Shown here: piece by piece, positions 17,906 through 57,874 of the stretch
Layout of the letters: each line of letters opens with the position of its first letter
Numbering within the stretch: the stretch's first letter is position 1
Assembly: GCA_020062745.1 (NCBI GenBank)
Contig: JAGUVT010000014.1
Location: forward strand, 23,521-87,520
Source of the DNA: Deltaproteobacteria bacterium
GTDB taxonomy: Bacteria; Bacillota; Desulfotomaculia; Desulfotomaculales; JAGUVT01
Reading direction: 5' to 3'
Length of the DNA: 64,000 nt
Position numbers and translations under genes: made by a program
Notes under the pieces: model-generated
Databases searched by the model: none
Seen by the model: only the letters and a program-made list of their open reading frames with translations
What the model was told of the DNA's origin: nothing

Positions 17906-18058
17906 TGCATACCACTTTTTGGCCTGTCTAATTTAACCATACCCACGCATTAGTCATCATCAACCCAACAGTTAAAGAACCTCCGGTTTTTCATTTTATC
18001 TAAAAGCTAATTTTCGACGAAAACAAAAGAGAATCCTTCTAAAAGTTTAAATTTTTAA

Positions 18059-18099: not shown

Positions 18100-18134
18100 T
18101 ATAAAAATGACTTACCATTTAAGGAGATGAAAAA

Positions 18135-18743: not shown

Positions 18744-19634
18744 GTTGCCTTGACTTTTGATAAAATTGATAAATGCTTCGACGGCAAACTCGCCGATACC
18801 ATGCTTATTGCAAATCAGATAAAGGTAGCGGTTAAGGTCTATCCCGGTTAACGGTACTTCTTTTACCAACTCTAATTTCAATGCTTCTTTTACCGCATGC
18901 CGCGAAACTATGCTTACTCCTAAACCGGCTTGAACTGCCGTTATTACCGCCCTGGTGCTTCCTAATTCCATGACAATTGGCATTTCTTCCAGCACAATGT
19001 TTCTTTGGGCCAGTTTTTGTTTTAAAGTCCGGCGTGTTCCGGAGCCGGACTCACGTATAATCATCGATTCATTCTTTAACTCATGTATGTCAACCGCACA
19101 ATCACCAACCCAATGATGGTGAGGGTGGGCTATTAATATCAGGCAATCCAGTATCCACGGCAAACATTTTATGCCTTCCTTGTTGATAGCAGTACCAGTA
19201 ACACCGAGGTCAATCTCCCTTTCATGTACCCAGCGCCCCACCTGGATACTTCCGGCTATCTGTAGAGTAATTTTAATCCCAGGATATTTTTCCTTAAATC
19301 CTCCGATTAGCAGAGGTAATATGTATTCGCCAGGCGTATTACTGGCTCCTACTACCAGTTGACCGGTTTTTAGCCCTTTTAGTTCATCTATACCGGCCTT
19401 AATCTTGTGGTAGTTTTTTAACATTTGTTTGGCTTCAAGGTAAAGAAGCCGTCCTGCTTCAGTAAGGGTAACTTTTTTATCTCCCCGTTTTAACAAGGTA
19501 ACCTGGAGGTTTTCCTCCAGGGCTTTTATTTGAAAGCTTACTGCCGGCTGGCTCATGTATAATTGGTGGGCAGCTTTCGTAAAGCTTTGCAATTCAGCTA
19601 CCCATAGGAATACTTCCAGCTGTTTTAAATTCAT
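18726..19634 (-). CDS. LysR-family transcriptional regulator
   Basis: 302 aa with N-terminal HTH MNLKQLEVFLWVAELQSFTKAAHQLYMSQPAVSFQIKALE and a LysR substrate-binding domain. Confidence 0.9.
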   Translation of the reverse strand: MNLKQLEVFLWVAELQSFTKAAHQLYMSQPAVSFQIKALEENLQVTLLKRGDKKVTLTEAGRLLYLEAKQMLKNYHKIKAGIDELKGLKTGQLVVGASNTPGEYILPLLIGGFKEKYPGIKITLQIAGSIQVGRWVHEREIDLGVTGTAINKEGIKCLPWILDCLILIAHPHHHWVGDCAVDIHELKNESMIIRESGSGTRRTLKQKLAQRNIVLEEMPIVMELGSTRAVITAVQAGLGVSIVSRHAVKEALKLELVKEVPLTGIDLNRYLYLICNKHGIGEFAVEAFINFIKSQGNLSYFS

Positions 19635-19709
19635 TTTAAAAACACCAACCGGTTTAGTTTTATTTAAGAATTCGCTATGATGACCTGAAAAACCTCCTGA
19701 CCTTCGACA

Positions 19710-20945
19710 TTATTTTGCAGTTTTTAATACTTCCTTAGCTGCAGAAAGTATAGCCAGCTTCACATGTTCCCTGGACAGACCGCCTTGCAAGTAAATTACA
19801 TAGGGCGGCCGTAATGGCCCGTCAGCGCTCAATTCCAAGGATGCCCCCTGGACAAAATTACCAGATGACATAACCACAGGGTCTTCATAACCTGGTACTT
19901 TCCCTGGTTCCGGGATAAAAAAACTATTTACCGGTGAAGCCTTTTGTAAACCATAACAGAAAGCAATCATCATTCCTGGCGATTCCAGGCGAATTGCCTG
20001 CACCAGATCAGTACGCTCTGCGTCATAGGCAGGCAAAACCACAAAGCCTAACCGGGAAAAAAATCGGGCCGCAAAAACCGCACCTTTCAGGGCCTCAGAT
20101 ACAATATGCGGAGCCATAAAGAGACCCTGAAAAAATAGACGCTGGCAGTCTGGCGAAGGACCTAATTCTCCAGCAATACCAGGAGCCGACCAGCGGCTTG
20201 CAGCCATTTCTACAAAACGGTTTCGTCCGACCACATAACCACCGGTAGGTGCCAGCCCGCCGCCAGGGTTTTTTATTAAGGAACCGGCAACCAGATCTGC
20301 CCCGGCATCAGTCGGTTCTTCGGCTTCAACAAACTCTCCGTAACAATTGTCGACCATTATTACTACCGGAGGATGGATCTCTTTAATAAAACGAATTGCT
20401 TCCCTCATCTGGTTTATTGTCAGCGAGCGCCTCCAGCGGTAGCCGCAAGAACGTTGCAGAAAGACCATCCGGGTATCGTCATTTACGGCTGATTTGATAC
20501 CGTTCCAGTCAATACTGCCGTCCGGTAAAAGTTCTACCTGCCGGTAATGAATACCAAAGTCAAGCAATGAACCTGGCGTTTTACCCTTTAAGCCGATTGT
20601 TTCAGCTAGAGTGTCATAAGGTGTCCCCTGAACGGCCAGGATTTCGTTACCTGGTCTTAAGATTCCGTAAAGGCAAAGAGCTATGGCATGAGTTCCAGAA
20701 ATAATTTGCCCCCGTACCAGGGCGCTTTCCGTCCGGAAGACTCCGGCATAAACTTCTTCTAAAACCCTTCTTCCTTCATCTCCGTAGCCATATCCGGTAG
20801 AGCCCTTTAAATGAAAATCACTTACTTTTGCCTTGCGAAAGGATTCCAAAACCCGACCCTGGTTTTTTAATGCCGTTTCCTCAATTCTCCGGTAAACCGG
20901 CCGGACATCCTCTTCAACTTCTTCAGCCAAGGCATCTAGATTCAT
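19710..20945 (-). CDS. YnbB/aluminium-resistance-family PLP-dependent enzyme (Cys/Met-metabolism lyase-like)
   Basis: 411 aa with KGSTGYGYGDEGR near the N-terminus, characteristic of this family. The position near hfq/miaA matches many Firmicutes. Confidence 0.8.
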   Translation of the reverse strand: MNLDALAEEVEEDVRPVYRRIEETALKNQGRVLESFRKAKVSDFHLKGSTGYGYGDEGRRVLEEVYAGVFRTESALVRGQIISGTHAIALCLYGILRPGNEILAVQGTPYDTLAETIGLKGKTPGSLLDFGIHYRQVELLPDGSIDWNGIKSAVNDDTRMVFLQRSCGYRWRRSLTINQMREAIRFIKEIHPPVVIMVDNCYGEFVEAEEPTDAGADLVAGSLIKNPGGGLAPTGGYVVGRNRFVEMAASRWSAPGIAGELGPSPDCQRLFFQGLFMAPHIVSEALKGAVFAARFFSRLGFVVLPAYDAERTDLVQAIRLESPGMMIAFCYGLQKASPVNSFFIPEPGKVPGYEDPVVMSSGNFVQGASLELSADGPLRPPYVIYLQGGLSREHVKLAILSAAKEVLKTAK

Positions 20946-20963
20946 GATGCTCTCCGTAAAATT

Positions 20964-21872
20964 CTAGGTTATTTCCGTAATGTCTTCCCTGGTGATAAAC
21001 ATTAATTCCTTCCGGGTCAACTCTTTTTTTTGAAGCAGGCGGACAGCCTGGCGGCGTATTGCCCGTTCGATCAGGTTGCGCACCAGACGGGCGTTGCCGC
21101 TGTGTCTATGTCGCCGGTGTTTATTTTCAATAACCAGGCGCAGTTCTTCCTCTGCCTCATTTGAAAGTATATACTGCCTTTGTTTGAGCATTAAAGCAGC
21201 AATGGAAAACAACTCATGGGTGCTATAATCCGGAAAGCTTATATGAATTGGAAACCGGGAACGCAATCCCGGATTACTTTCAATAAACCAGTCCATTTCA
21301 TCTTCATAACCGGCCAGAATCAGGATGAAGTTTTCCCGGTAGTCTTCCATTCCTTTTACCAGGGTATCAATAGCTTCTTTGCCGAAGTCTTTCTCACCGC
21401 CCCGGGCTAAAGCGTAAGCTTCATCGGCAAAGAGAATGCCCCCGATGGCCCTTTTGATTTGTTCCCTGGTTTTTTGAGCCGTATGGCCGATAAATTCACC
21501 TACCAGGTCAGCTCTCTCTACTTCTACCAGATGGCCTTTTTGCAGCACTCCAATTTCTTTGAAAAGTCTGCCCAGGATCCTGGCGACGGTGGTTTTGCCG
21601 GTACCGGGGTTGCCCTTAAAGATCATGTGCAAAACCAGAGGTTCGGTGAGCAGCTTTTCCCTCTGGCGATACTTCTGAATTTCAATGAAGGCATAAATTT
21701 CTCTGATCAGCTTCTTAACATCAGCAAGACCGATTAAAGAGTAAAGCTCTTCCCATACTTCCTGGGCATTTTTCCAGTTAATGCAGTTATTGTTGATGGA
21801 AATGTTATTGTTTTTAAAATTACCGGGTTCTTTATCACCCTGCCATATTTTTATTTTTACCAGAACAGTCAC
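20964..21872 (-). CDS. spoVK: Stage V sporulation protein K-like AAA+ ATPase
   Basis: Walker A GNPGTGKTTVARILG, Walker B ILFADEAY and a CbbX/SpoVK-type AAA module. GTG start. Confidence 0.85.
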   Translation of the reverse strand: MTVLVKIKIWQGDKEPGNFKNNNISINNNCINWKNAQEVWEELYSLIGLADVKKLIREIYAFIEIQKYRQREKLLTEPLVLHMIFKGNPGTGKTTVARILGRLFKEIGVLQKGHLVEVERADLVGEFIGHTAQKTREQIKRAIGGILFADEAYALARGGEKDFGKEAIDTLVKGMEDYRENFILILAGYEDEMDWFIESNPGLRSRFPIHISFPDYSTHELFSIAALMLKQRQYILSNEAEEELRLVIENKHRRHRHSGNARLVRNLIERAIRRQAVRLLQKKELTRKELMFITREDITEIT

Positions 21873-29917: not shown

Positions 29918-30781
29918 TTATTTTTGGTTGCTTGCAACCAGGGCAAGTACCTGTCTGGCCCGGTTAACAACCGGGTACTCGATCATTTTGCCATCAATCT
30001 GAATAACGGCTATTCCAGAAGCTTCTGCTTCCTCAAAGGCACTGATAATTTTTCCGGCCCACTCGATTTCATCTGCGGAAGGCATGAAAACTTCATTAAC
30101 CGGGTTTACCTGGCCCGGGTGAATGACCAGCTTTCCCTGGAATCCGATCTGTCGGGCCAGCCGGGCATCAGCTACCAGTCCTTCAATATCCTTGAAATCG
30201 GGGTACACCGTATCAACAGGGCTTTCAATACCGGCGGCACGTGAAGAAATAACAAGTTGGGAACGGGCAAAAAATAAAGCTTCTTTAGAATAACTGGCGC
30301 AAATATCTAAAAGATAATCTATCCCGCCAAAAAAAAGCCTGTGTACCCGCGGACAAGCTGAGGCAATGACATAAGAGTCTAAAACAGCTCTGGCACTTTC
30401 AATGAAAGGGATCAGTTCCAATTGATCTTTCGGCAGTTCCCGTTCCTGTTCCAATTTTGTGATCAGCCAGTCTACCCAACGCACTTCTTCGGCTGACTCG
30501 GCCTTTGCCAGGACGATCCCGTCTATCTTGCTGCTGCCTACCACTGCCAGCAAGTCACCCAGAATAAAGTTGCTCCGGGCGCTGTTTACTCTGATAAAAA
30601 CCCTGCCCTTGTGCGGTAAGTTCAAAGCCTCCTGAATAGTTATTCTGGCCTTTCTTTTTTCACTGGTAGCAACGGCATCTTCCAGGTCCAGCACTACCCC
30701 GTCAGCTTCGAGCATCAGGGCTTTGCCGGCTTTGCGCAGATCATTGGCCGGAGCAAACAAAATGGTGCGGTATATTGACAT
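29918..30781 (-). CDS. HpcH/HpaI aldolase / citrate lyase beta (CitE)-like acyl-CoA lyase
   Basis: 287 aa with LFAPANDLRKAGKA...DGVVLDLEDAV...PFIESARAV...GKLVIHPGQV, the typical CitE / malyl-CoA-lyase-like pattern. Confidence 0.85.
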   Translation of the reverse strand: MSIYRTILFAPANDLRKAGKALMLEADGVVLDLEDAVATSEKRKARITIQEALNLPHKGRVFIRVNSARSNFILGDLLAVVGSSKIDGIVLAKAESAEEVRWVDWLITKLEQERELPKDQLELIPFIESARAVLDSYVIASACPRVHRLFFGGIDYLLDICASYSKEALFFARSQLVISSRAAGIESPVDTVYPDFKDIEGLVADARLARQIGFQGKLVIHPGQVNPVNEVFMPSADEIEWAGKIISAFEEAEASGIAVIQIDGKMIEYPVVNRARQVLALVASNQK

Positions 30782-31095: not shown

Positions 31096-31629
31096 CTACC
31101 AGGGATGTCCCCACTTTTCCCGAAAACATATTTCTTCTAACGACTTCCTGGGACGAGGTTTCGGGTCCTGATCAGGATACCCCAACGGGGTAAGCCCGAC
31201 TACCTTCCAGTTATCCGGAATGTCCATGGCGGTTTTTATTGTTTTCTCATCAAACTCGCCCATCCAGCAGGTTCCCAGCCCTTCCGCCCAGGCTGCCAGG
31301 ATCAGATGTTCCATGGCAATTCCTGCATCAACAAGGTAATAAGCCTTTTCATCTATAACCCCGGACGCTTGGGGATCAGCACAAAGGATAATCAGCACCG
31401 GCGCCGGCATGATGGCTTTTTTGCCTGGGTTACTGTCATTAAAAGCACCTAGAATTCCAGCCTTTCCTTCTTCACTACGGATTACGATAAATCGCCAGCA
31501 CTGCAAGTTTTTCCACGATGGAGCCTGGCGGGCAGCGTCCAGTACCCGGAGCAGTTGTTCTTCGCCGACCGGATCCAGCTTATAACGACGGATACTCCTC
31601 CGTTCCGCAATTGCTTTATACAGTTCCAA
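31096..31629 (-). CDS. Nitroreductase-family FMN oxidoreductase
   Basis: 177 aa with N-terminal RRSIRRY and C-terminal GLGTCWMG...PLGYP motifs. Confidence 0.88.
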   Translation of the reverse strand: MELYKAIAERRSIRRYKLDPVGEEQLLRVLDAARQAPSWKNLQCWRFIVIRSEEGKAGILGAFNDSNPGKKAIMPAPVLIILCADPQASGVIDEKAYYLVDAGIAMEHLILAAWAEGLGTCWMGEFDEKTIKTAMDIPDNWKVVGLTPLGYPDQDPKPRPRKSLEEICFREKWGHPW

Positions 31630-31951: not shown

Positions 31952-32734
31952 TCAGTTGCCTTTGAATGCCGGCTTTCTTTTGTTTAAAAAAGCTTCGATT
32001 CCTTCTGCGTGGTCAGCAGTGGTAAAAGTAAGGGCAAACAGGTCGGCCTCATGAATAAAAGCTTTTTCCATGTCCATTTCCAGCCCTTCGTTAACGGCTT
32101 CTTTGGACAGGCGAACGGCTACCGGCCCTTTAGCGGCAATGCGGCCGGCCATCTTTTTGCAAAAGTCGATTAGCTCTCCTGACGGAACAACATGGTTCAC
32201 CAGTCCAATCCTCAAGGCAGCCTGCGCATCATATTGATCTGCCGTGAAAAGTATTTCTTTGGCTATCCCGGGATTGACCAGCCTGGTCAAACGCTGGGTA
32301 CCGCCAAAACCGGCCATCAGTCCGAGATTTACTTCCGGCTGGCCGAATTTTGCATTTTCCGACGCCACCCGGATATCGCAGGCCATAGCCAGCTCGCACC
32401 CGCCACCCAGGGCAAAACCGTTAACAGCGGCAATAACCGGCTTGGGCAGATTTTCAATACGACTGAACACCTGCTGCCCGTGGCGGGCAAAGTCCCTGGC
32501 CTGCAAAGGGTCGAGGGATTGCATAAACTTGATATCGGCGCCGGCTACAAAAGCTTTGTCACCAGCCCCAGTCAAGATAATCACCCGTATTGCCGGGTTG
32601 ACAGCCAGTTCGGTCATTGCTTCGTCCAGTTCGCCAAGTGTCTCCGTATCGAGGGCATTTAACAATTTCGGACGATTTATGATTACTAAAGCCAGATTAT
32701 CTTCTGTTTCTACCAGGATATTTTTCCACACCAT
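31952..32734 (-). CDS. crt: Enoyl-CoA hydratase (crotonase)
   Basis: I trimmed the start to ATG 32734 (GGGGGG 7 nt upstream). The crotonase fold is supported by FVAGADIK and GGGCELAMACD. Confidence 0.9.
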   Translation of the reverse strand: MVWKNILVETEDNLALVIINRPKLLNALDTETLGELDEAMTELAVNPAIRVIILTGAGDKAFVAGADIKFMQSLDPLQARDFARHGQQVFSRIENLPKPVIAAVNGFALGGGCELAMACDIRVASENAKFGQPEVNLGLMAGFGGTQRLTRLVNPGIAKEILFTADQYDAQAALRIGLVNHVVPSGELIDFCKKMAGRIAAKGPVAVRLSKEAVNEGLEMDMEKAFIHEADLFALTFTTADHAEGIEAFLNKRKPAFKGN

Positions 32735-32757
32735 TATTAATCCCCCCTTCGCCTGTT

Positions 32758-33606
32758 TCAATACTTGTAGAAACCCCGGCCGGTCTTGCGTCCGAGCCAG
32801 CCCGCAGCCACGTATTTGCGTAAAAGCGGACAGGGCCGGTACTTGGAATCACCCAGGCTTTGATGCAATACTTCCATGATGTAAAGGCAGGTATCCAGTC
32901 CGATGAGGTCGGCCAGGGCCAGGGGTCCCATCGGGTGGTTCATACCCAGCTTCATTACCTGGTCGACTGCTTCCGGAGTGGCGATTCCCTCGTAAACGCA
33001 ATATATCGCCTCGTTGAGCATCGGCACCAGGATCCGGTTGGAGACAAAGCCGGGGGAATCATTTACTTCAACCGGAACCTTGCCCATTCGTTCGCTGGCA
33101 GTTTTCACCAATTCGTAAGTTTCATCAGCAGTGGCCAGACCCCTGATCACTTCAACCAGTTTCATTACCGGCACCGGGTTCATAAAATGCATGCCGATGA
33201 CTTTATCCGGCCGTTTGGTCGCCGCGGCGATTTCAGTAATGGGTAAAGACGACGTATTTGTGGCCAGAATGGCTTCCGGTTTGCAAATATTATCCAGCTC
33301 ACGGAAGATCTTGCTTTTTATCTCCATATTTTCTACCGCCGCCTCAATAACCATATCGGCGCCCGCAGCATCAGAAAAAGCGGTGGAAGGAGTAATTTGC
33401 CTCATTACCGCTTCTTTCCGGGCTTCATCAATACGCTCTTTGGCCACATCACGGCTTAGATTTTTCTCAATAACATTTATTCCCTTGTTTACTAAAGCAT
33501 CGTTTAAGTCGTTAAGTAATACTGCATAACCGGCCTGGGCAGCCACCTGGGCGATACCGCCGCCCATCTGGCCCGCGCCGATAACCATAATTTTTTTAAT
33601 TTCCAT
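32758..33606 (-). CDS. hbd: 3-hydroxybutyryl-CoA dehydrogenase
   Basis: I trimmed the start to ATG 33606 (AAAGGAGG upstream). Motifs [12 protein letters not shown], the catalytic region [13 protein letters not shown] and the C-terminal GRKTGRGFY are present. Confidence 0.93.
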
Positions 33607-33634
33607 TAATAAGCCTCCTTTGCTCAATAACAAG

Positions 33635-34819
33635 TTACATAATATTTTCTACAATCATTGCCGCTCCCTGGCCGCCGCCGATGCACAGGGTGGCCAGACC
33701 GTAACGGCCGCCGCGCCGTTTCAGTTCATAAAGCAGGGTTACCAGGATGCGCGCGCCGCTGGCGCCAATAGGATGACCCAGGGCCACCGCCCCGCCGTTA
33801 ACATTAACTTTCTCCGCCGGCAGCGCCAGTTCCCGGCACACCGCTACGGCCTGGGCGGCAAAAGCTTCATTAGCCTCGATTAAATCAAGATCGGCGATAC
33901 TCAGACCGGCCTTGGCCAGCGCCTTGCGGCTGGCCGAAACCGGCCCCATACCCATATAAGCAGGATCGACTCCGGCAACGGCGAAAGCTTTTATGGCAAA
34001 AAGCGGTTTTAGGCCCAGTTCAGAGGCTTTTGCCGCGGACATTACCACTACTGCGGCCGCCCCGTCGTTAATACCGGAGGCATTGCCGGCCGTAACCGTT
34101 CCCTCTTTTTTAAAGGCCGGCTTCAGTTTCGCCAGTTCTTCCATGGTTGTACCGCGCCGGGGAAATTCATCTACGGCGAATTGCACCGGTTCCCCCTTTT
34201 TTTGTGGTATGGCGACCGGCACGATTTCCTCCTTGAATTTCCCGGTATCTATGGCGGCAATAGCCTTTTGCTGGCTTTCCGCGGAAAACCGGTCCTGATC
34301 TTCCCGGCTTACTCCGTACCTGGCTGCGACGTTTTCAGCCGTAACGCCCATATGGACATCACCAAAAGCACACCACAACCCGTCTCTGATCATGGAATCA
34401 ACCAGTTTACCGTCACCCATGCGGTAACCCCACCTGGCTTTTTCAATAAGATAAGGGGCCGCGCTCATGTTTTCCATGCCGCCGGCTACAATAACATCGG
34501 CCTCGCCGGCAGCGATCAACTGGGCTGCCAGACCGACAGTCTTTAAGCCGGAGCCGCACACTTTATTTATCGTAGCAGCAGGAACTTCGTAAGGGATACC
34601 GGCTTTTACCGCTGCCTGCCGGGCCGGGTTCTGACCAAGACCGGCCTGTAAGACATTGCCCATCAGCACTTCGTCCACCTGCCGGCCTTCCAGTCCGGAC
34701 CGGCGCAGCGCTTCGGCAATTACCAGGGCGCCTTGCTCGGTTGCCGAAACCTCGACCAACGTGCCGCCGTACTTGCCGACGGCCGTGCGCACCGCGCCGA
34801 CAATAACCGCTTTATGCAT
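33635..34819 (-). CDS. thl: Acetyl-CoA acetyltransferase (thiolase II)
   Basis: 394 aa with the active-site Cys in [10 protein letters not shown] and C-terminal [16 protein letters not shown] and CIGGGQG. Confidence 0.95.
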
Positions 34820-34860: not shown

Positions 34861-36831
34861 TTATGCCATTGTTCCGGCGATCATTTCGGCCAGATCCAGA
34901 ACCTTGACTTTTTCTTCCGCTTCCTTGTCTTTAAGGCCGTCTTCAAGCATGGTCAGGCAATACGGACAGTTGCAGCAAATGACTTGTGCATTTGTGGTCA
35001 GGGCCTGTTCGGTGCGCATGACATTGATCCGCTTGCCGTGACTTTCCTCAAGCCACATCCGGCCGCCGCCCGCCCCGCAGCAGAAACCGTTTGTCCGGGA
35101 ACGCGCCATCTCGGTGACGGTTACACCGGGAATGGCCTGTAAAATATGGCGCGGCTCATTATATACGCCGTTGTATCTGCCAAGGTAACAGGAATCATGA
35201 TAAGTGGCCTGCACCTTCTCACTGCCCGGTTTGAATTTCAACTTGCCCCGGGCAATAAGTTGGGCCAGAAACTGACTGTGGTGAATAACTTCATAATGAC
35301 CGCCGAACTGGCCGTACTCGTTTTTCAAGGTATTGAAGCAATGCGGGCAGTGGGTAATGATTTTTTTAACTCCATAGCCGTTTAAGGTTTCAATGTTCTC
35401 CTTGACCATGGTATCGTACAAGTACTCATTTCCCAAACGGCGGGCGGATTCGCCGCAGCATTTTTCTTCAGTGCCCAGAATGGCGAAGCTCGTCCCCGCA
35501 GCTTTCAGGACTTTTGCCAGGTCCCGGACCACCTTCTTGTTCCTATCGTCAAAAGACCCGGCGCAACCTACCCAAAACAGGTAGTCTACTGCGCCGGGGT
35601 CGTCACCCAAAATCCTGATCTCCAGGTCGGACGCCCAATCCGCCCTGGTATTCCAGCTAACCCCCCAGGGATTGAAGTTTCTTTCCATGTTGGTAAAAGC
35701 AAGCTGGGCTTCCCCCGGAAAGTCGGACTCATCCATCACCAGGTTGCGTCGCATGCCGATGATTTTCGGGATATGTTCATTAAAAGTAGGGCACTGTTCC
35801 ATACAGGCAAAACAGGTGGTGCAGGCCCAGATTGCTTCCGGGTCGAATACGTCTCCCACCATTTTTTTGTCGTCTTCCGCGTCTTTTTTCGCAGTCAGAT
35901 GCTCTCTCAGTTGCAGAATGATTCTTTTCGGTGAAAGCGGTTTTCCGCTGAGATGAGCCGGGCAACTGGCCTGGCAGCGGCCGCATTCGGCGCAGGCGAA
36001 AGTATCAAGTAAATCTTTCCAGGTGAATTCTTCGATTTTACCGATGCCGAAAGTTTCTATTTCCTCATCTTCAAAATTAATCGGCCTGGTCATACCGCCC
36101 CTTGGCTGCAAATTGCGCAAATAAGCGTTTATCGGGGCGGCTACCGGGTGCACCAGGTGCGAATAACGGAAAAAGATCATCAGTCCGATACCCAGGGCCG
36201 CGCTCACCCACCAGAAAGTAACATACAGGGCTGTCAAAGTACCGCTGACGGATCCGGCCATCCATCCGGCCACGGCGTTGGTAATAAAGGCCAGGCTGTA
36301 TTTACTTTCCGGCTGAAGCAAGGATAAAGCGGCGCCGGCGAAAAAGTAAGCGATCACCATCAGACTCATACCGGCGATTAATCCGACGATTATTGCCTCT
36401 TCGCGGCCGCTGCCGACATCGAGGCGTTCTACCCGCGCTATATAGCGCCGGTAGGCGGATACCAGGATGCCGACCAGCGCAAAAAACCCGAACACGTCGG
36501 CAAGCAGGTAGAAGAAAGGGCTTTTACCGAGCAGCGGCAGGTTAAAACCGGGTATTAGCCGGTTTAAAAAGAGCTGAAGCATACCCAGGGCAAAAACAGT
36601 CAGACCCCAGAAAATCATCAGGTGCATCAGGCCGGGGCCGAATTCCCTTACTATTCTGCGCTGCCCCAAAACATCGGTTACCAGCCCGGCAATTCGCCGG
36701 CCGGGATTGTCAAAGCGGTTTTCCGGTTTGCCTCTTTTAATAAGCTTGTATCTTTCTACCAAACCCTGGCTGAAAGAGTAAATTCCAAAAATTAAAAGTA
36801 CTACAAAAATTATAACCTCCGGGAAGCTCAA
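34861..36831 (-). CDS. Membrane-bound Fe-S oxidoreductase (N-terminal multi-TM domain plus HdrD-like 2x[4Fe-4S] and two CCG domains), EtfAB:quinone-oxidoreductase-like
   Basis: I trimmed the start to TTG 36831 (AAGGAGAG 6 nt upstream). About six hydrophobic helices are followed by [24 protein letters not shown] and the CCG motifs WVGCAG...KCCGES...HCPHC and YHDSCY...FCCGAGGG...NCPYC. The architecture matches the DUF224-type protein linked to butyryl-CoA oxidation in Syntrophomonas. Confidence 0.85.
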
Positions 36832-36975
36832 GACAATCTCTCCTTTTTTTAATATTGCAACAAAAATTGCCACGTGTTTCCCCGGTTTAACATCTAACCC
36901 CAAACTCATAAAGCCTGTAGAAGAAAGTATTCTCTCCTTGCAATAATCTTTTTTCAACAGGCTCCTCTTTTTGTT

Positions 36976-38115
36976 CTATTTCAAAAGGTAGTTGGCAATA
37001 ACAATACGCTGTACTTCACTGGTCCCCTCGTAGATTTCAGTTATCTTGGCGTCGCGCATCATCCTTTCTACCGGATATTCCCTGCTATAGCCATAACCGC
37101 CATGAATCTGCACGGCTTTGGTGGTAACCCACATGGCTGTCTCAGCAGCAAACAGCTTGGCCATGGCAGACTGCTTGCCGTAAGGTTGGCCGCTATCCTT
37201 CAAGCAAGCAGACTGGTAGACCAGCAGGCGGGCAGCTTCAATTCTGGTCGCCATGTCGGCCAGCATCCACTGAATTCCCTGGTTGGCGCTGATCGGCTTC
37301 CCGAACTGTTCCCGCTGTTTGCTGTAGGACAAGGCCTGATCCAAAGCTCCCTGGGCGAGGCCTACAGCCTGGGCCCCGATGCCAATCCGGCCGCCGTCAA
37401 GGGTGGCAAGGGCGATTTTGAAACCCTGGCCGTCTTCCCCGAGCATGTTTTCTTTCGGAACCCGGCAGTTTTCAAAAATCAATTCGTAGGTATAAGAAGC
37501 CCTGATTCCCATTTTATGCTCTTTTTTACCAAAGGTAAAACCGGGCGCGCTTTTTTCCACAATAAAAGCCGCCGTGCCGCGGTGTCCTTTGCTGCGATCG
37601 GTGCTGGCGATAATAATGTAAGTTTCTGCCTTGCCGGCGTTGGTAATAAAAAGCTTGGTTCCATTTAGAATATAGTCGTCACCATCGGCCCTGGCGGACA
37701 GCTTAACCGATCCGGCATCCGAGCCGGCGGACGGCTCGGTAAGACCCAGGGCGCCGATTTTTTTCCCTTCGGTCAGGGGAACCAGATAATTTTTTTTCTG
37801 TTCTTCAGTGCCGAAATGATAAATGGGCCAGGAACACAACGAAGTGTGTGCTGAAAGTAAGACGCTGGTGGAAGTACAAACACGTGACAATTCCTCAACA
37901 GCAATAGCGTAACAGAGGTTATCCATACCCGCGCCGCCGTACTCTTCCGGAAATGGAATGCCGGTCAGTCCGATTTCTGCCATTTGATCCCATAACGACC
38001 AGTCATAATCTTCCTTCTCGTCCATTTCGGCGGCTTTGGGGGCTACTACGGTTTCGGCAAAATCCCGCACCGTCTTGCGAATCATTTCCTGTTCTTCGGT
38101 TAACTGAAAGATCAT
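36976..38115 (-). CDS. Acyl-CoA dehydrogenase (short/butyryl-CoA type)
   Basis: 379-aa full ACAD fold ([10 protein letters not shown], catalytic-base region YEGTSEVQR). Confidence 0.93.
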
Positions 38116-38149: not shown

Positions 38150-39328
38150 TTAAATTACCCCGTCCCGGCGGAAAGATGCAATTTCTTCCGCCGAGTAATT
38201 AAACTGCTTTAAGACTTCTTCCGTATGTTCGCCCATGTCCGGCGGCGCTGAAACTATTTTGGCAGGGGTATCGGATAATTTTATGGGTACCCCGATTTGT
38301 TTTATCGTTCCCAGGCGGGGGTGCTCCATCTCGAAAATCATTTGCCGGTGACGAATCTGGGGGTCTGCGAATACCTCCGCCATATCACAGACCGGTGTGC
38401 AGCAGACATCTTTATCCGCCAGTTCGGCTACCCATTGATCGCGCTCCCTGGTAAGGAACTGTTCCTGTAAGAAACGGCTTAATTCCTCCTGCTTTTCATC
38501 AATATACTGCCACTGGATGTATTCTTCTTTCCCGAAGTATTTACATAAATTCTTCCAAAAATGTTCTTCTGCTGCAGCCAGAGCTACATAACGCCCGTCT
38601 TTTGTCTGATAAACATTGTAACAGGCGTATCGGCCGGTAAACGTCGTCCCGCCTCGCCTGGGTATTTTGCCAGAAGGAAAGTACTCGCCGGCCAATGTGG
38701 CAGCTATGGGAACAGTTCCATCCAGCATCGAGATATCAACAAACTGACCCTTGCCGGTGCGCTGCCGGGCCTGCAGAGCCAGTAAAATACCAATTACAGC
38801 CATCATGGCGCCTCCGGTAAAGTCGGCGATCTGGGTACCGGGAATAACCGGCTTTTCGTTTAGCAGGCCGGTCATCCCGAGAATGCCGGCATAGCCAATG
38901 TAATTGATATCGTGCCCGGGCGCCTGGACATATGGGCCATCCTGTCCGTAACCGGTAACAGAGCAATAAATTATGGCCGGGTTGATTTCTTTCAAAGTGC
39001 TGTAATCAACCCCGATCCTTTTTGGGACTCCAGGACGGTACCCTTCCATCACTACATCTGCTTCTTTAACCATACGGTAAAAGATTTCCTTGCCGGCAGG
39101 ATGCTTGAGATTCAATATAATACTTTTTTTATTCCGGTTGATAAGCAGGAAATTGCCGCCTGTATCACCAACCTTATCGGCTGACATCCAGCGCAAGTAA
39201 TCACCACGACCGGGTTCTTCTATTTTAATAACCTCAGCTCCAAAGTCAGCAAGCATCATAGAACAATAAGGCCCTGGAAGCAAGCGGGTCAGATCAAGCA
39301 CTTTTATTCCTTCCAACGGTGTAGTCAT
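38150..39328 (-). CDS. Family III CoA-transferase (CaiB/BaiF/Frc family)
   Basis: 392 aa with LEGIKVLDLTRLLPGPYCSMMLADFGAEVIKIE and the catalytic Asp region GHDINY. Confidence 0.9.
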   Translation of the reverse strand: MTTPLEGIKVLDLTRLLPGPYCSMMLADFGAEVIKIEEPGRGDYLRWMSADKVGDTGGNFLLINRNKKSIILNLKHPAGKEIFYRMVKEADVVMEGYRPGVPKRIGVDYSTLKEINPAIIYCSVTGYGQDGPYVQAPGHDINYIGYAGILGMTGLLNEKPVIPGTQIADFTGGAMMAVIGILLALQARQRTGKGQFVDISMLDGTVPIAATLAGEYFPSGKIPRRGGTTFTGRYACYNVYQTKDGRYVALAAAEEHFWKNLCKYFGKEEYIQWQYIDEKQEELSRFLQEQFLTRERDQWVAELADKDVCCTPVCDMAEVFADPQIRHRQMIFEMEHPRLGTIKQIGVPIKLSDTPAKIVSAPPDMGEHTEEVLKQFNYSAEEIASFRRDGVI

Positions 39329-39454: not shown

Positions 39455-39505
39455 TTAAAAAGCAGCATGTCTTACACGTTTCAAGAGTACGTGCCCATGC
39501 TGCTT
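39455..39505 (-). terminator. Rho-independent terminator after the mutase pair
   Basis: The minus-strand RNA forms the outer stem AAGCAGCAUG/CAUGCUGCUU (39460-39469 pairing with 39496-39505) and the inner stem CACGU/ACGUG, followed by UUUUUAA. Confidence 0.6.
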
Positions 39506-39538: not shown

Positions 39539-39943
39539 TTAAGCAGACGCCTTTCGTTTTACGTTTTTACTGATGTAATCGACTATGTGTTCCATTTTTG
39601 AGCCGGGCAAAAATACCTCGTCTACTCCTGCTTCTTTCAGTTTCGGTATGTCATCAAGCGGAAATACCCCGCCCAATACTACGAGGATATCCTTTGCCCC
39701 GCTTTCCGAAAGCAACCGGGTTATTTTGGGGATCAGCTTCATATAGGTTGAAGACAAAAGGCTTAAACCAAGGACATCCACATCTTCCTGAATAGCCGTT
39801 TGAACAATTTGTTCCGGATCTTGCTGCCCAATGTATACAACTTCCATTCCGGCATCCCGTAGCGCCAGGCTTACGATTGTGGCGCCCCAATTGTGAGCGT
39901 CAAAACCAGGTTTTGCCATCAATACTTTGATTTTGCGTTCCAT
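39539..39943 (-). CDS. Cobalamin-binding small subunit of an acyl-CoA mutase (divergent)
   Basis: 134-aa flavodoxin-like B12 domain with the DxHxxG motif as FDAHNWG and GLSLLSS. SD GGGGGA is present. Confidence 0.85.
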   Translation of the reverse strand: MERKIKVLMAKPGFDAHNWGATIVSLALRDAGMEVVYIGQQDPEQIVQTAIQEDVDVLGLSLLSSTYMKLIPKITRLLSESGAKDILVVLGGVFPLDDIPKLKEAGVDEVFLPGSKMEHIVDYISKNVKRKASA

Positions 39944-39963
39944 ACACCTGTTCCCCCTTATGC

Positions 39964-41595
39964 CTACAGCATTCTTTGCTCTGCAACTCCATATACTTTA
40001 CGCCAGACGTCGCATATCTCTCCTACACCGGCATATGCTTTGACGGATTCCATTACGGCCGGCATTACGTTCTGATCTGTTTCACTGACTCTGGCCAGTT
40101 CTGATAACGCCTTTTGTACCCGGTCGTTATCCCGCTCTCTTTTCAGTTTTTCAAATTTGGCCCTTTGAATCTCATAGGTCTTCGGATTAGTTTTATAAAC
40201 ATCGTATTCATAAGGCTCCTCAGCCATTTCGTAGCAGTTGACGCCGACGATATTCAACTCGCCGCCGGCCAACTTTTTGGTATGTTCCCTTTGGGCTTCT
40301 ATTCTTTCTTTGTACAGCCAGCCGGATTCCAGGGCGGCAAACCATCCTCCCTGTTCCTCAATCTTCTGCAAATATTCACGCGCTTTTTCTTCAATCTCAT
40401 TGGTCAGCCACTCGATATAATACGAACCGCCAAGCGGGTCTATAACGTTGGCAATGTTGGTTTCCAGTTGGGCAATTTGCTGCGTCCTGATGGCCATTAA
40501 AACACTTTTCTCTGTCGGGGTGCAAATTGCCTCATCAAACGAGTTGGCATGAATAGACTGGGCTCCCCCCAGAGCTGCCGCCAGCACCTGGTAGGCTATC
40601 CGGACAATGTTGTTCAGAGGCTGCTGGTAGGTATGGGTTGAACCGGCTGTTTGCACATGGAACCGCAACGTCAGTGAATTTGGATTGCGGGCGCCGTATC
40701 TTTCCTTCATCAACCGGTACCACAATCTTCTGGCGGCTCTATATTTGGCGATTTCTTCAAAAAAGTCGTTATGAGCCGATAAATGGAAAGTAAATTTGGG
40801 TACAAAGTCATCCACTGCCAGTCTTTTTCTCTTCAGTTCTTCTTCGATATAGTCTAAAGCTGCGGCAATCAGGCCGGCAATTTCCTGGTAGGCGTTGACC
40901 CCGGTTTCCCGGTAATTATACGAGGTAAAACTAACCGGATGCCATTTGGGTACATTTATGGCGCACCACTCTACCAGGTCAACGCCCAGTCTCAACAGGT
41001 GCCGGGGCGGGTATGAGTCACGAAACGGGCCACAGGCGGCAAAAGAGACGGGATCACCTTCTGTAGTCCCGTCAACGTCGCTTAGCTTTATTCCTCTTTT
41101 TTCAGCCAGGGCAAAATACATTGCGGTGTGGGGACAAGTGGTGGTCATCAAGGGGATAACAGCAGCGCTGATTTTGCCTATCGGCAGACCTTCAAAAATG
41201 GTTTCCATATCCTGCAGGTTGCTTAATGAAACTCCTCCAGCCGCTACTTCTGCCTCTGCCAGTGGATGATTGGGGTCGTGTCCCATAATACTCAGGTTGT
41301 CCATAGCAATGGCAAAGCCGGTAATACCGTTTTCATACTCGTATTTAAATCTTTCATTTGTTGCTTCCGGTGTATCCAGGCCGGAAAATTGGCGGATCGT
41401 CCACAGCTTTCCCCGGTACATGGAAGGATAGATTCCCCTGGTGTAAGGTTCTTCCCCCGGCATGCCCAGATCCCGATCATAATTCAAACCAGATATATCT
41501 CCCGGAGTATAGACTCTTTTTACCGGTATTCCCGAATTCGTGGCAAACACTTCTTTTCTTTCTCTGAATCTTTTTGTTTCTTTAGTTCCTCCCAT
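39964..41595 (-). CDS. Acyl-CoA mutase large (substrate-binding) subunit, divergent paralogue of unknown substrate
   Basis: 543 aa with mutase-family blocks (YTRGIYPSMYRGKLWTIRQ, FFEEIAKYRAARRLW, VIDPLGGSYYIEWLT). The signature positions are changed: RQFSGL (Tyr89 to Phe), GTTEGDP in place of GTIQNDI, and SYN in place of GYH (His244 to Asn). Confidence 0.85.
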   Translation of the reverse strand: MGGTKETKRFRERKEVFATNSGIPVKRVYTPGDISGLNYDRDLGMPGEEPYTRGIYPSMYRGKLWTIRQFSGLDTPEATNERFKYEYENGITGFAIAMDNLSIMGHDPNHPLAEAEVAAGGVSLSNLQDMETIFEGLPIGKISAAVIPLMTTTCPHTAMYFALAEKRGIKLSDVDGTTEGDPVSFAACGPFRDSYPPRHLLRLGVDLVEWCAINVPKWHPVSFTSYNYRETGVNAYQEIAGLIAAALDYIEEELKRKRLAVDDFVPKFTFHLSAHNDFFEEIAKYRAARRLWYRLMKERYGARNPNSLTLRFHVQTAGSTHTYQQPLNNIVRIAYQVLAAALGGAQSIHANSFDEAICTPTEKSVLMAIRTQQIAQLETNIANVIDPLGGSYYIEWLTNEIEEKAREYLQKIEEQGGWFAALESGWLYKERIEAQREHTKKLAGGELNIVGVNCYEMAEEPYEYDVYKTNPKTYEIQRAKFEKLKRERDNDRVQKALSELARVSETDQNVMPAVMESVKAYAGVGEICDVWRKVYGVAEQRML

Positions 41596-41818: not shown

Positions 41819-41847
41819 TTGCTTAAGGTTTAATATAGCCGTATAAT
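41819..41847 (+). promoter_or_regulatory. Candidate sigma-A promoter of copA
   Basis: TTGCTT (41819-41824), a 17-nt spacer, then TATAAT (41842-41847), 35 nt upstream of the copA ATG. Confidence 0.55.
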
Positions 41848-41882
41848 ATTTGTATGTTAATTTAATATGGAGAGAAAACTGA

Positions 41883-45816: not shown

Positions 45817-45901
45817 TGGTGCGGGCGGCGAGAGTTGAACTCGCACGGGTATTCCCCACTGGATCCTAAGTCCAGCGCGTCTGCCTTTCCGCCACGCCCG
45901 C
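45817..45901 (-). tRNA. tRNA-Leu (anticodon UAG), type II with long variable arm, CCA encoded
   Basis: The minus strand reads GCGGGCG-UG-...CUGGA-CUUAGGA-UCCAG-UGGGGAAUACCCGUG-GCGAG-UUCAACU-CUCGC-CGCCCGC-ACCA. It has a 7-bp acceptor stem, a T-arm and UAG in the anticodon loop. Confidence 0.93.
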
Positions 45902-55681: not shown

Positions 55682-55777
55682 TGAGATTCCTCCCGTTTTA
55701 TTTTTTACCGGAAGGAGGAATTTATTTATGCTGATTAGAATTATCGAAAAATATAAACAGCAAAGGGGTTGATCCAT

Positions 55778-57436
55778 TTGGCTGAAACAAACGAGACAGT
55801 TTCTTCTTCCTACCACGAAAAGTTCAACCGGGGCAAAACCTGGTCCGGCCTGGAATTAAAGGAATTCTACAATCCTGCGGACACTGCCGGTATAGATTAC
55901 CACCGCTCTATCGGCGATCCCGGCCAGTATCCTTATACCCGCGGCATCCACCGCAATATGTACCGGGGCCGGCTCTGGACCAGGCGCGAGGTCTGCGGTC
56001 TCGGCTCGGCCCGGGAAACCAACGAAAGACTGAAGTTTTTGCTGCGGGAAGGCGCCGGCGGCCCCAACGTAATTGTAGACGTGCCGGGAGAGTTGGGTAT
56101 TGACGCCGACCACCCGCGGGCCGCCGGCGAAGTAGGGGTGACCGGGGTAAGCATCAACTCGTTAGCAGATATAACTGTTCTGACGGAAGGAATCCCTCTT
56201 GATAAAACCAGTTTTTCTTTGATTGTCGCCGCCCCCTCGGCGGAAGTAATGTTCAGCCAATACCTGGTCGAAGCACAACGCAGGGGCATTGATTTCCGTC
56301 TTTTAAGCGGTTCCATCCAGAACGACCCCATCCATCTCCGGTACTGCGGCTTCCCGCCGGCCGCCCCGCTCGACGTGGCCCGGAAAACGGCTGTGGATAT
56401 CATTGAATACTGCACCAGGTATGTACCCCGCTGGTACACCACTACCATTAACCTTTACGACCTGCGGGAAAACGGCATCAGCGCCGCGCAAGAGATTGCC
56501 TTCGGTTTCGGCATCGGCCTGATTTACATCGACGGCGCTATTGAAAGGGGACTGCAGATAGATGACTTTATACCGCGCCTTTCCTTTTATTGTTCCGCCC
56601 ATATTGATTTCTTTGAAGAAATAGCCAAACTCAGGGCGGCCCGCCGGCTCTGGGCTAAAATCATGCAGGAACGCTACGGGGCAAAAGATCCCCGCTCTCT
56701 GCAATTCCGGTTTGCCGTCCATACGGCCGGCTGTTCGCTGGTGCCGCAGCAGCCGCTGAACAACGCCATCCGGATCGCTTACGAAGCGCTGGCGGCTGTA
56801 TTAGGCGGAGTACAATCGCTGCACTGCTGCTCCTACGACGAACCCATCGCCCTGCCCACCGAGCAATCACACCTGCTGGCCATCCGCACCCAGCAGGTTC
56901 TGGCCTATGAAACCGGTGTCGCCGCCGTAAGCGACCCGCTCGGCGGGTCTTATTACATAGAAAACCTGACCGATAAAATTGAGGAAGAAACCCTCAAGAT
57001 ATTTAAAGAGATTGAGGACAGGGGCGGCATGCTGGAGGCAATTAATTCCGGCTGGATTGATCAGGAAATGGAAAAAGCTGCTTTGGAAGAGCAGCAGCGC
57101 ATCGAAAAACGGGATCGCCTGGTGGTCGGGGTCAATGTCTTCCGGATGCCGCCGGAAGACGCGACCCCCAGCGGCGTTCAGCGCATACCGGCGCAGGTAG
57201 AACAAAAGATCATTGAAGATGTCGAAAAGCTTAAAAAAGAGCGGCACCGTCCGGCCTGGCAGCAGGCCATCGACAACTTGAAACGGCACACCGAAAAGGG
57301 TGAAAAGGAAAACTTGATCCCGCCGGTCATTGAATGTATAAAAGCCGGTGCGACTGTGGGAGAAATAATGGGCGTAATCCGGCAGGCATACGGTCATCCG
57401 TACGACCCCCTGGAAGCAATCCAACCGCCCTATTAA
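55778..57436 (+). CDS. Acyl-CoA mutase large subunit, third and divergent paralogue of unknown substrate
   Basis: Mutase blocks are present ([49 protein letters not shown]). The signature positions differ: RREVCGL (Tyr89 to Val), a 4-residue deletion after IQND, and LYD in place of GYH (His244 to Asp). I prefer start TTG 55778 (AAGGGG 8 nt upstream). The track uses 55769. Confidence 0.85.
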   Translation: MAETNETVSSSYHEKFNRGKTWSGLELKEFYNPADTAGIDYHRSIGDPGQYPYTRGIHRNMYRGRLWTRREVCGLGSARETNERLKFLLREGAGGPNVIVDVPGELGIDADHPRAAGEVGVTGVSINSLADITVLTEGIPLDKTSFSLIVAAPSAEVMFSQYLVEAQRRGIDFRLLSGSIQNDPIHLRYCGFPPAAPLDVARKTAVDIIEYCTRYVPRWYTTTINLYDLRENGISAAQEIAFGFGIGLIYIDGAIERGLQIDDFIPRLSFYCSAHIDFFEEIAKLRAARRLWAKIMQERYGAKDPRSLQFRFAVHTAGCSLVPQQPLNNAIRIAYEALAAVLGGVQSLHCCSYDEPIALPTEQSHLLAIRTQQVLAYETGVAAVSDPLGGSYYIENLTDKIEEETLKIFKEIEDRGGMLEAINSGWIDQEMEKAALEEQQRIEKRDRLVVGVNVFRMPPEDATPSGVQRIPAQVEQKIIEDVEKLKKERHRPAWQQAIDNLKRHTEKGEKENLIPPVIECIKAGATVGEIMGVIRQAYGHPYDPLEAIQPPY

Positions 57437-57463
57437 ACTTATATGCGTCAAGGGAGGTTTGAA

Positions 57464-57874
57464 ATGGCTAAAAAGATCAGGGTTATTTTAAGTAAAATCG
57501 GTCTGGACGGTCACGACCGGGGGATTAAGATGCTGGCCCGTATGTTCCGGGAGGCCGGGATGGAAGTAGTCTATATGGGGCTGTACCAGACACCGGAAAA
57601 TGTGGTGCGGGCGGCAGTGCAGGAAGACGCCGACGTTATCGGACTGAGCATTCTCTCCGGCGAACACCTTACGCTGGTGCCAAAAGTAACCGCGCTTTTA
57701 AAAGAGCAAAAACTGGAAAATGAAATTTTACTGCTGGTCGGCGGGGTTATTCCGAGAGAAGATGTGCCGGCGGTTAAAAGCCACGGGGTGCACGAAGTGT
57801 TTACCGCCGGGTCGCTGGTGGAAGAGATTGTAGACTATATTCATCAATGGGTAAACAGGAGGGCAAAGACTTAA
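57464..57874 (+). CDS. Cobalamin-binding small subunit of acyl-CoA mutase (canonical type)
   Basis: I trimmed the start to ATG 57464 (GGGAGG 6 nt upstream). Motifs GLDGHDRG (DxHxxG) and GLSILSGEHLTLVP are present. Confidence 0.88.
   Translation: MAKKIRVILSKIGLDGHDRGIKMLARMFREAGMEVVYMGLYQTPENVVRAAVQEDADVIGLSILSGEHLTLVPKVTALLKEQKLENEILLLVGGVIPREDVPAVKSHGVHEVFTAGSLVEEIVDYIHQWVNRRAKT

Follow-up and report, generated by a model that had tools for sequence, protein, structure and literature searches.

A clade of B12-dependent acyl-CoA mutases with Asn244 and His287 from uncultured anaerobes, and its possible place in anaerobic alkane degradation

Introduction

The adenosylcobalamin (AdoCbl)-dependent acyl-CoA mutases are a small family, and all characterised members that we know of keep the active-site residue His244. 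The choice of substrate in these enzymes is set by a handful of residues (PMC2847961). Here we analyse a two-subunit mutase encoded on the minus strand at positions 39539-41595 of a 64,000-nucleotide stretch of DNA, called the window throughout (Deltaproteobacteria bacterium, placed by GTDB in the Desulfotomaculales; assembly GCA_020062745.1, contig JAGUVT010000014.1, positions 23,521 to 87,520), together with the clade of relatives that shares its altered active site.

Among the characterised enzymes, 2-hydroxyisobutyryl-CoA mutase (HCM; HcmAB of Aquincola tertiaricarbonis, PDB 4R3U) has the same split layout, with a large subunit of approx. 560 aa and a B12 subunit of approx. 135 aa. It was the best solved-structure match of the pair both by sequence (422 bits for the large and 117 bits for the small subunit) and by fold (TM-score 0.93), and it too lacks Tyr89 and Arg207. 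The identity with HCM is, however, only 40%, and the residues Ile90, Asp117, Gln207 and His244 of HCM correspond to Phe, Ala, a rebuilt loop and Asn in the window protein, with a His at position 287 in the clade. Methylmalonyl-CoA mutase (MCM; P. shermanii MutB, human MMUT and a canonical copy in the window) belongs to the same superfamily and shares with the pair the fold, the DxHxxG motif, Tyr243 and most of the motifs close to CoA and to the cofactor. The window protein is 33% identical to MutB and 44% to the canonical copy, but Tyr89, Gln197, Arg207 and His244 are all changed. Isobutyryl-CoA mutase (ICM; IcmAB or IcmF) has Phe89 and the loss of Arg207 in common with the window protein, whereas it has Gln207 and keeps His244, neither of which is found here.

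Wilkes and co-workers reportedly postulated in 2002 a pathway of anaerobic alkane degradation that includes a (1-methylalkyl)succinyl-CoA mutase and an epimerase. The postulated mutase has never been identified and has no reference sequence. The step is expected to need a mutase together with an epimerase resembling alpha-methylacyl-CoA racemase, enzymes that have not been conclusively described, and genome studies assign the rearrangement of alkylsuccinates to a generic "methylmalonyl-CoA mutase" and an alpha-methylacyl-CoA racemase (PMC6163223, PMC6776118). In the iaa pathway of Aromatoleum aromaticum the family III protein IaaL, the B12 mutase IaaGH and the acyl-CoA dehydrogenase (ACAD) IaaF act on arylsuccinyl-CoA; IaaF is of a decarboxylating type, with GGG in place of YEG (PMC8360864). 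IaaGH, a predicted phenylsuccinyl-CoA/benzylmalonyl-CoA mutase, is likened here to the window pair by its gene content (family III protein, B12 mutase and ACAD), and the ACAD of the window differs from IaaF in having YEG.

Results

The mutase pair and its active site

The large, substrate-binding subunit (39964-41595, minus strand, 543 aa) and the B12-binding small subunit (39539-39943, minus strand, 134 aa) are both encoded by intact open reading frames (ORFs), placed as in the first-pass annotation of this DNA. The large subunit matched PF01642 (MM_CoA_mutase, the TIM-barrel substrate domain) over its full length with 568 bits, and the small subunit matched PF02310 with 77.5 bits. The only NCBIfam models passed by the pair were the generic domain models TIGR00641 for the large subunit (529 bits, cut-off 304) and TIGR00640 for the small one (136.5 bits, cut-off 57). 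No equivalog cut-off was reached by the large subunit, which scored 412 bits with the MCM equivalog NF006944 (cut-off 876) and 209 bits with the IcmF equivalog NF045497 (cut-off 1500). The top PDB matches of the small subunit were 2yxb and the small subunit of HCM. In the alignment to 2yxb and 4r3u_C its DAHNWG, called atypical at first pass, departs from the usual DGHDRG, but the cobalamin motif DxHxxG is still satisfied.

The active-site residues were mapped by HMMER and MAFFT alignments of the large subunit to the solved MCM and HCM structures. Tyr89 is replaced by Phe (WTIRQFSGL), GTIQND reads GTTEGD, so that Gln197 becomes Glu and Asn198 becomes Gly, and GYH reads SYN, which turns His244 into Asn. 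The segment ILKEFMVRNTY is exchanged for PVSFAACGPFRDSY with an indel, leaving a Cys/Gly/Pro loop without Arg at position 207. The motifs FTSYNYRET and FTFHLS are present, and residue 287 is His; counted along the window protein itself, the Asn and this His are residues 227 and 271. In the alignment to 4r3u_A, Ala occupies the position of the HCM-specific Asp117 and Phe that of Ile90, the two residues which we take to determine the specificity and stereospecificity of HCM.

Measured against the known types, the protein has none of the carboxylate ligands Tyr89 and Arg207 or the catalytic His244 of MCM. It has the Phe89 of ICM, but both Gln at 207 and the retained His244 are absent, and in place of Ile90, Asp117 and His244 of HCM it carries Phe, Ala and Asn. 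Tyr89, Arg207 and His244, which ethylmalonyl-CoA mutase (ECM), reportedly described by Erb and colleagues in 2008, keeps, are all replaced. The structure alignments thus bear out the exchanges read from the DNA at first pass (Tyr89 to Phe, Gln197 to Glu, loss of the Arg207 context and His244 to Asn). They agree, as does the tree described below, with the statement made there that the residue set is unlike that of MCM, ICM or HCM.

The Asn244/His287 clade

The clade comprises about 150 protein clusters, all from uncultured anaerobes, which share Asn244. The best 120 homologues were 50-100% identical to the window protein and all came from metagenomes or metagenome-assembled genomes (MAGs), with hosts among the Peptococcaceae, Dehalococcoidia, Thermodesulfobacteriota, Chloroflexota, Spirochaetota, Ca. 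Methanolliviera and Ca. Syntrophoarchaeum. In order to find cultured hosts, a second search was started from a distant member located in an operon for 1-methylalkylsuccinate synthase (mas). It returned the same uncultured set, with no cultured organism among the matches listed, and no Aromatoleum protein was among the best 120 clusters listed in either search. The PLSDB plasmids held no clade member, every match being below 45% identity. Among 1.84 billion representatives the clade appeared as one 50% cluster at 702 bits, while the next protein scored 506 bits, a gap of approx. 200 bits.

The altered signature was well conserved: among the best 120 homologues Tyr243 was present in all 120, Asn244 in 114 and Phe89 in 96, while Arg207 was found in none, and His287 occurred in 30 of 41 clade sequences. 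When the clade was compared with 44 canonical sequences in an unbiased column comparison, 70 of the 107 family-invariant columns proved to be retained, and 16 canonically invariant positions were systematically swapped, among them (literature numbering) Ser164Ala, Thr166Ile, Gly242Ser, His244Asn and Phe287His.

Phylogenetic placement, already proposed at first pass, was carried out as a bootstrapped neighbour-joining tree of 92 sequences. The core clade obtained 100% bootstrap support, as did the group of the window protein with P0002 and P0003, and the F-E-x-N subclade, to which the window protein belongs, obtained 83%. Canonical MCM proteins (Y-Q-R-H) and proteins with the ICM signature (F-Q-Q-H) formed separate groups, and the clade was located outside both of them and outside HCM, the characterised enzyme that came closest to the wider non-canonical radiation (73% bootstrap). 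The clade is a previously undescribed and uncharacterised branch of the acyl-CoA mutase family, defined by Asn244, usually Phe89, the absence of Arg207 and the new His287. The non-canonical signature reported at first pass is therefore real but not peculiar to this gene, since the whole clade conserves it. The name "orphan" given to the pair does not hold either, with about 150 clade members and three mutase large subunits in the window alone.

A control sequence with Asn at the His244 position, ctl_L049, branched just outside the core clade. Its relative in locus L056 (131-4760) is accompanied by a PaaK-like CoA ligase, a B12 subunit and a MeaB-like G-protein, and is itself an RQLAG-type mutase without the canonical GYH (His244) motif; the fragment is possibly iaa-like (auxin pathway). 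L049 and L056, both on short contigs, were examined as candidate IaaG-like relatives.

Selection and predicted fold

On the close pair of clade loci L002 and L089 the large subunit was under strong purifying selection, with a dN/dS value of 0.045; the small subunit gave 0.054, and the family III neighbour described below 0.106. Between the window and its relatives dN was 0.15-0.17 and dS was saturated. Decay of the enzyme, considered at first pass, does not agree with a dN/dS of 0.045 and a conserved signature. The AlphaFold2 model of the large subunit had a pLDDT of 87.4, and its sole weak internal stretch was the rebuilt loop. TM-scores were 0.93 with HCM (rmsd 1.8 Å), 0.90-0.91 with the alpha subunit of MCM, 0.84 with IcmF and 0.70 with the inactive beta subunit of MCM. 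Since the DxHxxG motif and 70 of the 107 invariant columns are retained, the predicted fold is closest to the catalytic subunits and the dN/dS value is 0.045, the pair looks like a catalytically competent AdoCbl-dependent acyl-CoA mutase, intact and active.

Gene context of the relatives

The surroundings of 34 non-redundant clade loci (L numbers) were compared with those of 79 control loci carrying canonical mutases. The controls came from a contig scan with the full-length clade alignment, which matched motifs common to all split-type mutases and yielded almost only canonical His244 enzymes of at most 48% identity; these were reused as controls and outgroups. The B12 subunit was adjacent in 31 of the 34 clade loci. 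A family III (PF02515) gene, the only enriched neighbour, was present within 10 kb in 7 of the 34 clade loci and in 1 of the 79 controls (p = 0.0009). Catalytic subunits of glycyl-radical enzymes were found in 2/34 and 0/79 loci, respectively (p = 0.04-0.09). ACADs, thiolases, 3-hydroxyacyl-CoA dehydrogenases (Hbd) and crotonases were not enriched near the clade in the same comparison.

The type of the glycyl-radical fragments was not given by NCBIfam but was obtained by comparison with the new MasD structure. In L101 the clade mutase shares an operon with a MasD-type enzyme (707 bits to 9o8u, 493 bits to benzylsuccinate synthase, BSS), a small subunit, a racemase-type family III gene, a short-chain dehydrogenase/reductase (SDR), a radical-SAM protein and a VEG-type ACAD. 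In L001, which comes from another Peptococcaceae MAG and holds the closest homologue (77%), the mutase is 2.4 kb from the C-terminus of a MasD-type protein (218 bits, against 150 for BSS). The mutase pair of L002/L003 (75%) follows BssC_TutF, two glycyl-radical activases and MoxR/VWA genes, and L133 has similar accessory genes. The linkage to mas/ass genes expected of the postulated alkylsuccinyl-CoA mutase is thus present in L101 and L001, is represented by accessory genes in L002 and L133, and is absent from the window.

The accessory set of L002 (1038-8697) is bss/mas-like and consists of two glycyl-radical activases, a BssC_TutF-like ORF of 53 aa, an ORF of 88 aa, a MoxR AAA ATPase, a VWA protein and a radical-SAM-PDZ protein; the place between its small-subunit genes, where a catalytic glycyl-radical subunit would be expected, has none. 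Further along L002 the mutase pair is enclosed by two family III genes, one of the transferase type before it and one of the racemase type after it, and the latter is followed by a DctP-type binding protein of a tripartite ATP-independent periplasmic (TRAP) transporter. The locus of the clade pair in L134 contains a family III gene of the transferase type and a DctPQM TRAP system, and binding proteins of the DctP type were found in L002, L089 and L134. The transferase-type family III and TRAP genes of L002 and L134 fit dicarboxylate uptake and CoA activation.

A divergent mutase large subunit of 581-582 aa adjoins the clade member in L101 (7639-9387), within the MasD operon, and in L134 (6526-8271). 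It keeps Tyr89, Gln197, Arg207 and His244 and is 35% identical to P. shermanii MCM, and the two copies grouped at 100% bootstrap.

Other clade loci have different surroundings. The mutase pair of L001 is followed by an HGD-D/DUF2229/BcrAD set similar to that of L007. In L007 (Ca. Methanolliviera, GCA_902158745.1; 122-8526) three mutase pairs stand abreast, beside two HGD-D (2-hydroxyacyl-CoA dehydratase-like) genes and a BcrAD/BadFG-type activator. The clade pair of L006, a Thermodesulfobacteriota MAG, lies at 8298-21611 amid FmdE-domain genes, CooT, a TonB-dependent receptor, a BtuF/FecCD-type ABC importer and CobN, which is a cobalamin uptake and cobalt-chelatase neighbourhood. In L135 (4527-18985) hydantoinase A/B and acetone-carboxylase gamma-type genes stand on either side of the pair, which suggests that this member has a different substrate.

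The family III neighbour and the downstream genes

Directly downstream of the pair the window encodes a family III (CaiB/BaiF) protein of 392 aa (38150-39328, minus strand; PF02515, 408 bits) with a racemase-type catalytic pair. Over the full length it was more similar to the CoA-transferase SUGCT (252 bits) than to the M. tuberculosis racemase MCR (212 bits), the racemase alignment ending at residue 334 of 392, whereas the core segment scored 102 bits with MCR, 78 with SUGCT and 74 with Frc. The catalytic residues His126 (GHDINY) and Asp156 (ADFTGG) of MCR (PDB 1X74) align exactly. Orthologues of 47-69% identity with the same His/Asp pair adjoin the clade mutases in L002, L089 and L101, and a second, transferase-like family III type with GYD occurs in L002, L116, L128 and L134. 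The protein is probably an acyl-CoA C2-epimerase which partners the mutase, although CoA-transferase activity is also possible.

The gene for a short-chain, Bcd/AcrC-type ACAD comes next (36976-38115, minus strand; 559 bits with the NCBIfam AcrC model). Its catalytic motif is YEG (IYEGTSE) and not GGG, and by this criterion (PMC8360864) it is not an IaaF-like decarboxylating enzyme. It is followed by a membrane-anchored Fe-S/CCG oxidoreductase of 698 aa (34861-36957, minus strand) with two CCG domains and a 4Fe-4S dicluster domain, which is the likely electron outlet for the ACAD; no EtfAB genes were found anywhere in the beta-oxidation cluster. A homologue of this oxidoreductase lies near the clade mutase of L102. 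ORF translations further gave a thiolase (33635-34819), an Hbd (32758-33633) and a crotonase (31952-32761), all on the minus strand. At the far end of the cluster an HpcH/CitE-like C-C lyase of the malyl-CoA or citramalyl-CoA lyase type is encoded (29918-30781, minus strand), with a nitroreductase gene (31096-31629) between it and the crotonase. The lyase prompted us to consider the ethylmalonyl-CoA pathway, a reading that was dropped since ECM keeps Tyr/Arg/His, and Ccr and mesaconyl-CoA hydratase are absent.

The composition of this set proposed at first pass was thus confirmed by domain for the ACAD, the membrane Fe-S protein, the thiolase, Hbd and crotonase, but the supposed CoA-transferase carries the His126/Asp156 pair of a racemase. 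From position only we infer the linkage of the mutase to the thiolase, Hbd and crotonase genes. That the rearranged product enters this adjacent beta-oxidation route, as had been suggested, is plausible, but a terminator separates the pair from it and ACADs are not enriched near the clade.

This intrinsic-terminator-like hairpin, followed by a U5 tract, lies directly past the stop codon of the small subunit (39460-39505, minus strand), where a terminator had been placed earlier at 39455-39505. It folds with a dG of -21.3 kcal/mol (z -3.8), and 0 of 200 shuffles folded equally well. A promoter-like site (TTAACA, 17-nt spacer, TATATT; 10/12 matches) is found at 41832-41860 on the minus strand, approx. 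240 nt 5' of the large-subunit start codon, but it comes from a consensus scan only, and such sites were no more numerous in the region than expected from shuffling. No cobalamin riboswitch or other Rfam element was detected near the mutase pair.

Other genes of the window

The window also contains a complete methylmalonyl-CoA (mmc-type) operon (1266-17701, minus strand) with Mdh, the biotin carboxyl carrier protein, carboxyltransferase, epimerase, the MCM large subunit, SucD/SucC, Hdr-like flavo/Fe-S proteins and a two-subunit fumarase. The pathway could regenerate fumarate, and its carboxyltransferase and biotin carrier lie 35 kb from the mutase pair. The canonical MCM large subunit in this operon (4959-6656, minus strand; RQYAGF, Arg207, GYH) has no adjoining B12 small subunit and no space for one, therefore its cofactor subunit must be encoded elsewhere.

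A third mutase pair, differently non-canonical, is located at 55769-57874 on the plus strand amid spore-germination (gerA-type) and spoVR/prkA genes. In its large subunit (555 aa; B12 subunit 143 aa) Tyr89 is replaced by Val, His244 by Asp and Phe287 by Tyr. A paralogue found together with the clade in L134 is 76% identical to this subunit, and the pair is a second uncharacterised mutase type in this genome. Despite the three mutases, no MeaB/ArgK-type G-protein P-loop (GxPGxGKS[TS]) is encoded in the 64 kb. A tRNA-Leu gene (anticodon TAG; 45817-45901, minus strand) has a rubrerythrin-like ORF on one side and an O-methyltransferase-like gene on the other.

Discussion

The fold, the cofactor motif, the clade membership and the purifying selection of the mutase, the racemase residues of its neighbour and the mas linkage of its relatives are directly supported. 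As judged from its sequence, the pair is a mutase of a new, uncharacterised specificity class, and the first-pass remark that the substrate could equally be new stands. Which substrate is used, in which order the steps proceed and what role, if any, His287 has, we infer. Our tentative preference, held with less than even confidence, is that the pair acts on 2-alkylsuccinyl-CoA, works with the epimerase and feeds beta-oxidation. The family III epimerase would supply the right C2 epimer of a C2-branched acyl-CoA, and the mutase would shift the CoA-thioester group to the adjacent carbon in the usual radical 1,2-shift, which would be the same as that of MCM if the substrate is an alkylsuccinyl-CoA. 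The likeliest substrate would be 2-alkylsuccinyl-CoA, the CoA ester of a hydrocarbon-fumarate adduct, giving alkylmalonyl-CoA; after loss of CO2 the product would pass to the beta-oxidation enzymes encoded downstream. Because the relatives are found in 1-methylalkylsuccinate synthase clusters, hydrocarbon-fumarate adducts are suggested as substrates rather than free branched fatty acids, and the clade mutase with a racemase-type family III protein in or beside the MasD-type operons of L101 and L001 is the pairing predicted for the alkane pathway. It is rather more doubtful, but conceivable, that the enzyme postulated for anaerobic alkane degradation, the (1-methylalkyl)succinyl-CoA mutase, is this clade; it would then have a racemase-like epimerase of its own and an active-site His that has moved (244 lost, 287 gained). 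Since mutase, epimerase, beta-oxidation and the methylmalonyl-CoA pathway are present and no alkylsuccinate synthase is found within the 64 kb, the organism might live on alkylsuccinates released by other hydrocarbon degraders.

Several observations weigh against an alkylsuccinyl-CoA substrate. The characterised mutases for free carboxylates known to us, MCM and ECM, all keep Tyr89 and Arg207, and the clade has neither; its pocket, without the usual carboxylate ligands, is therefore more like that of enzymes for uncharged acyl groups. The divergent 581-582-aa paralogue with Tyr/Gln/Arg/His, found next to clade members and once within the MasD operon, could be the true alkylsuccinyl-CoA mutase. 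The glycyl-radical link consists of two loci with a catalytic subunit and two with accessory genes, out of 34, and many clade loci lie elsewhere, near Liv-type ABC transporters, SDRs, acetone-carboxylase-like or B12 uptake genes. The window has no glycyl-radical enzyme and no mas/ass genes within its 64 kb, its ACAD is of the ordinary YEG and not the decarboxylating type, and the terminator stands between the mutase pair and the downstream genes. No cultured alkane degrader was among the best 120 clusters listed in the searches from the window protein and from the mas-operon member.

The relatives' context favours 2-alkylsuccinyl-CoA, while the active-site chemistry favours an uncharged 2-methylacyl-CoA, and the latter is the main competing explanation, possible although somewhat less likely. 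The pair would then interconvert 2-methylacyl-CoA and the straight-chain acyl-CoA whose main chain has one carbon more, e.g. 2-methylbutyryl-CoA and valeryl-CoA, in a generalised ICM reaction. The racemase-like protein would epimerise the 2-methylacyl-CoA, which is the established function of such racemases, and the linear product would pass to Bcd, crotonase, Hbd and thiolase. Phe89 and the loss of Arg207 are seen in the enzymes for uncharged substrates, ICM (Phe/Gln) and HCM (Ile/Gln), the exchanges Ser164Ala and Thr166Ile raise the hydrophobicity of the site, the catalytic core of the neighbour is most like 2-methylacyl-CoA racemases, and YEG, the motif of the downstream ACAD, is that of the straight-chain type. 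The carboxylated intermediate could be left to the separate Tyr/Arg/His paralogue of L101 and L134, and the mas linkage would be accounted for by the methyl-branched acyl-CoAs that arise later in the pathway than alkane-fumarate addition. However, 2-methylacyl-CoAs can be beta-oxidised without a mutase, and making them linear would remove the propionyl-CoA that is thought to regenerate fumarate. The transferase-type family III genes of L002 and L134 and the DctP TRAP proteins of L002, L089 and L134 suggest a dicarboxylate, and since ICM and HCM both retain His244, the chemistry differs from theirs in any case.

The remaining readings are less likely. A mutase of the HCM kind is known from anaerobic acetone degradation, and a hydroxyacyl-CoA mutase (HCM or RCM kind) converting 2-hydroxyisobutyryl-CoA and 3-hydroxybutyryl-CoA into each other, ahead of Hbd and thiolase, would agree with HCM being the closest solved structure by sequence and fold, with its grouping with the non-canonical radiation, with the Hbd and thiolase genes downstream and with the acetone-carboxylase/hydantoinase-like flanks of L135. 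We consider it improbable, because the HCM determinants are absent (Ile90 is Phe, Asp117 is Ala), His244 is kept in HCM and lost here, a C2 epimerase has no obvious role on hydroxyacyl substrates, and HCM is nearest partly because the PDB has no other split-type large subunit. The isomerisation suggested at first pass, in which an isobutyryl-CoA/butyryl-CoA mutase would feed butyrate oxidation, seems slightly more improbable still. The ICM-like Phe at the Tyr89 position and the adjoining butyryl-CoA-type beta-oxidation cluster speak for it, but the ICM signature is Phe/Gln/His, and the window protein lacks Gln207, has Asn at 244 and stays far below the IcmF cut-off. Proteins with F-Q-Q-H form a separate group, and one of them, L001_550, shares its locus with the closest homologue, so the two are not redundant. 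The racemase-like partner moreover implies a substrate with a C2 stereocentre, which neither isobutyryl-CoA nor butyryl-CoA has, and would be left without a role. Least likely of all is that the large subunit, having lost the catalytic His, is a non-catalytic paralogue with a structural or regulatory function like the beta subunit of MCM. His244, Tyr89 and Arg207 are indeed all replaced, and the protein adjoins another large subunit in L101 and L134, but the window copy is accompanied by its small subunit alone. Its own B12 subunit accompanies the clade protein in 31 of 34 loci with an intact cofactor motif, the motifs close to the active site are highly conserved (Tyr243 in 120/120), dN/dS is low and the fold is far nearer to the catalytic subunits than to MutA.

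The clade jointly replaces His244, Tyr89 and Arg207 and gains a His on the neighbouring strand, which indicates a new substrate class or an altered assistance of the radical rearrangement. Since 2002 the anaerobic alkane pathway has had a gap at the step where the carbon skeleton of alkylsuccinates is rearranged, and the clade and the co-located 581-aa paralogue provide two concrete candidates for the alkylsuccinyl-CoA mutase. Should the clade prove to be this enzyme, its occurrence in Ca. Syntrophoarchaeum and Ca. Methanolliviera, archaea that oxidise alkanes, would hint at a common downstream step. The gene would be a better marker of anaerobic hydrocarbon turnover, and the production of branched or rearranged acids would gain a new B12 enzyme.

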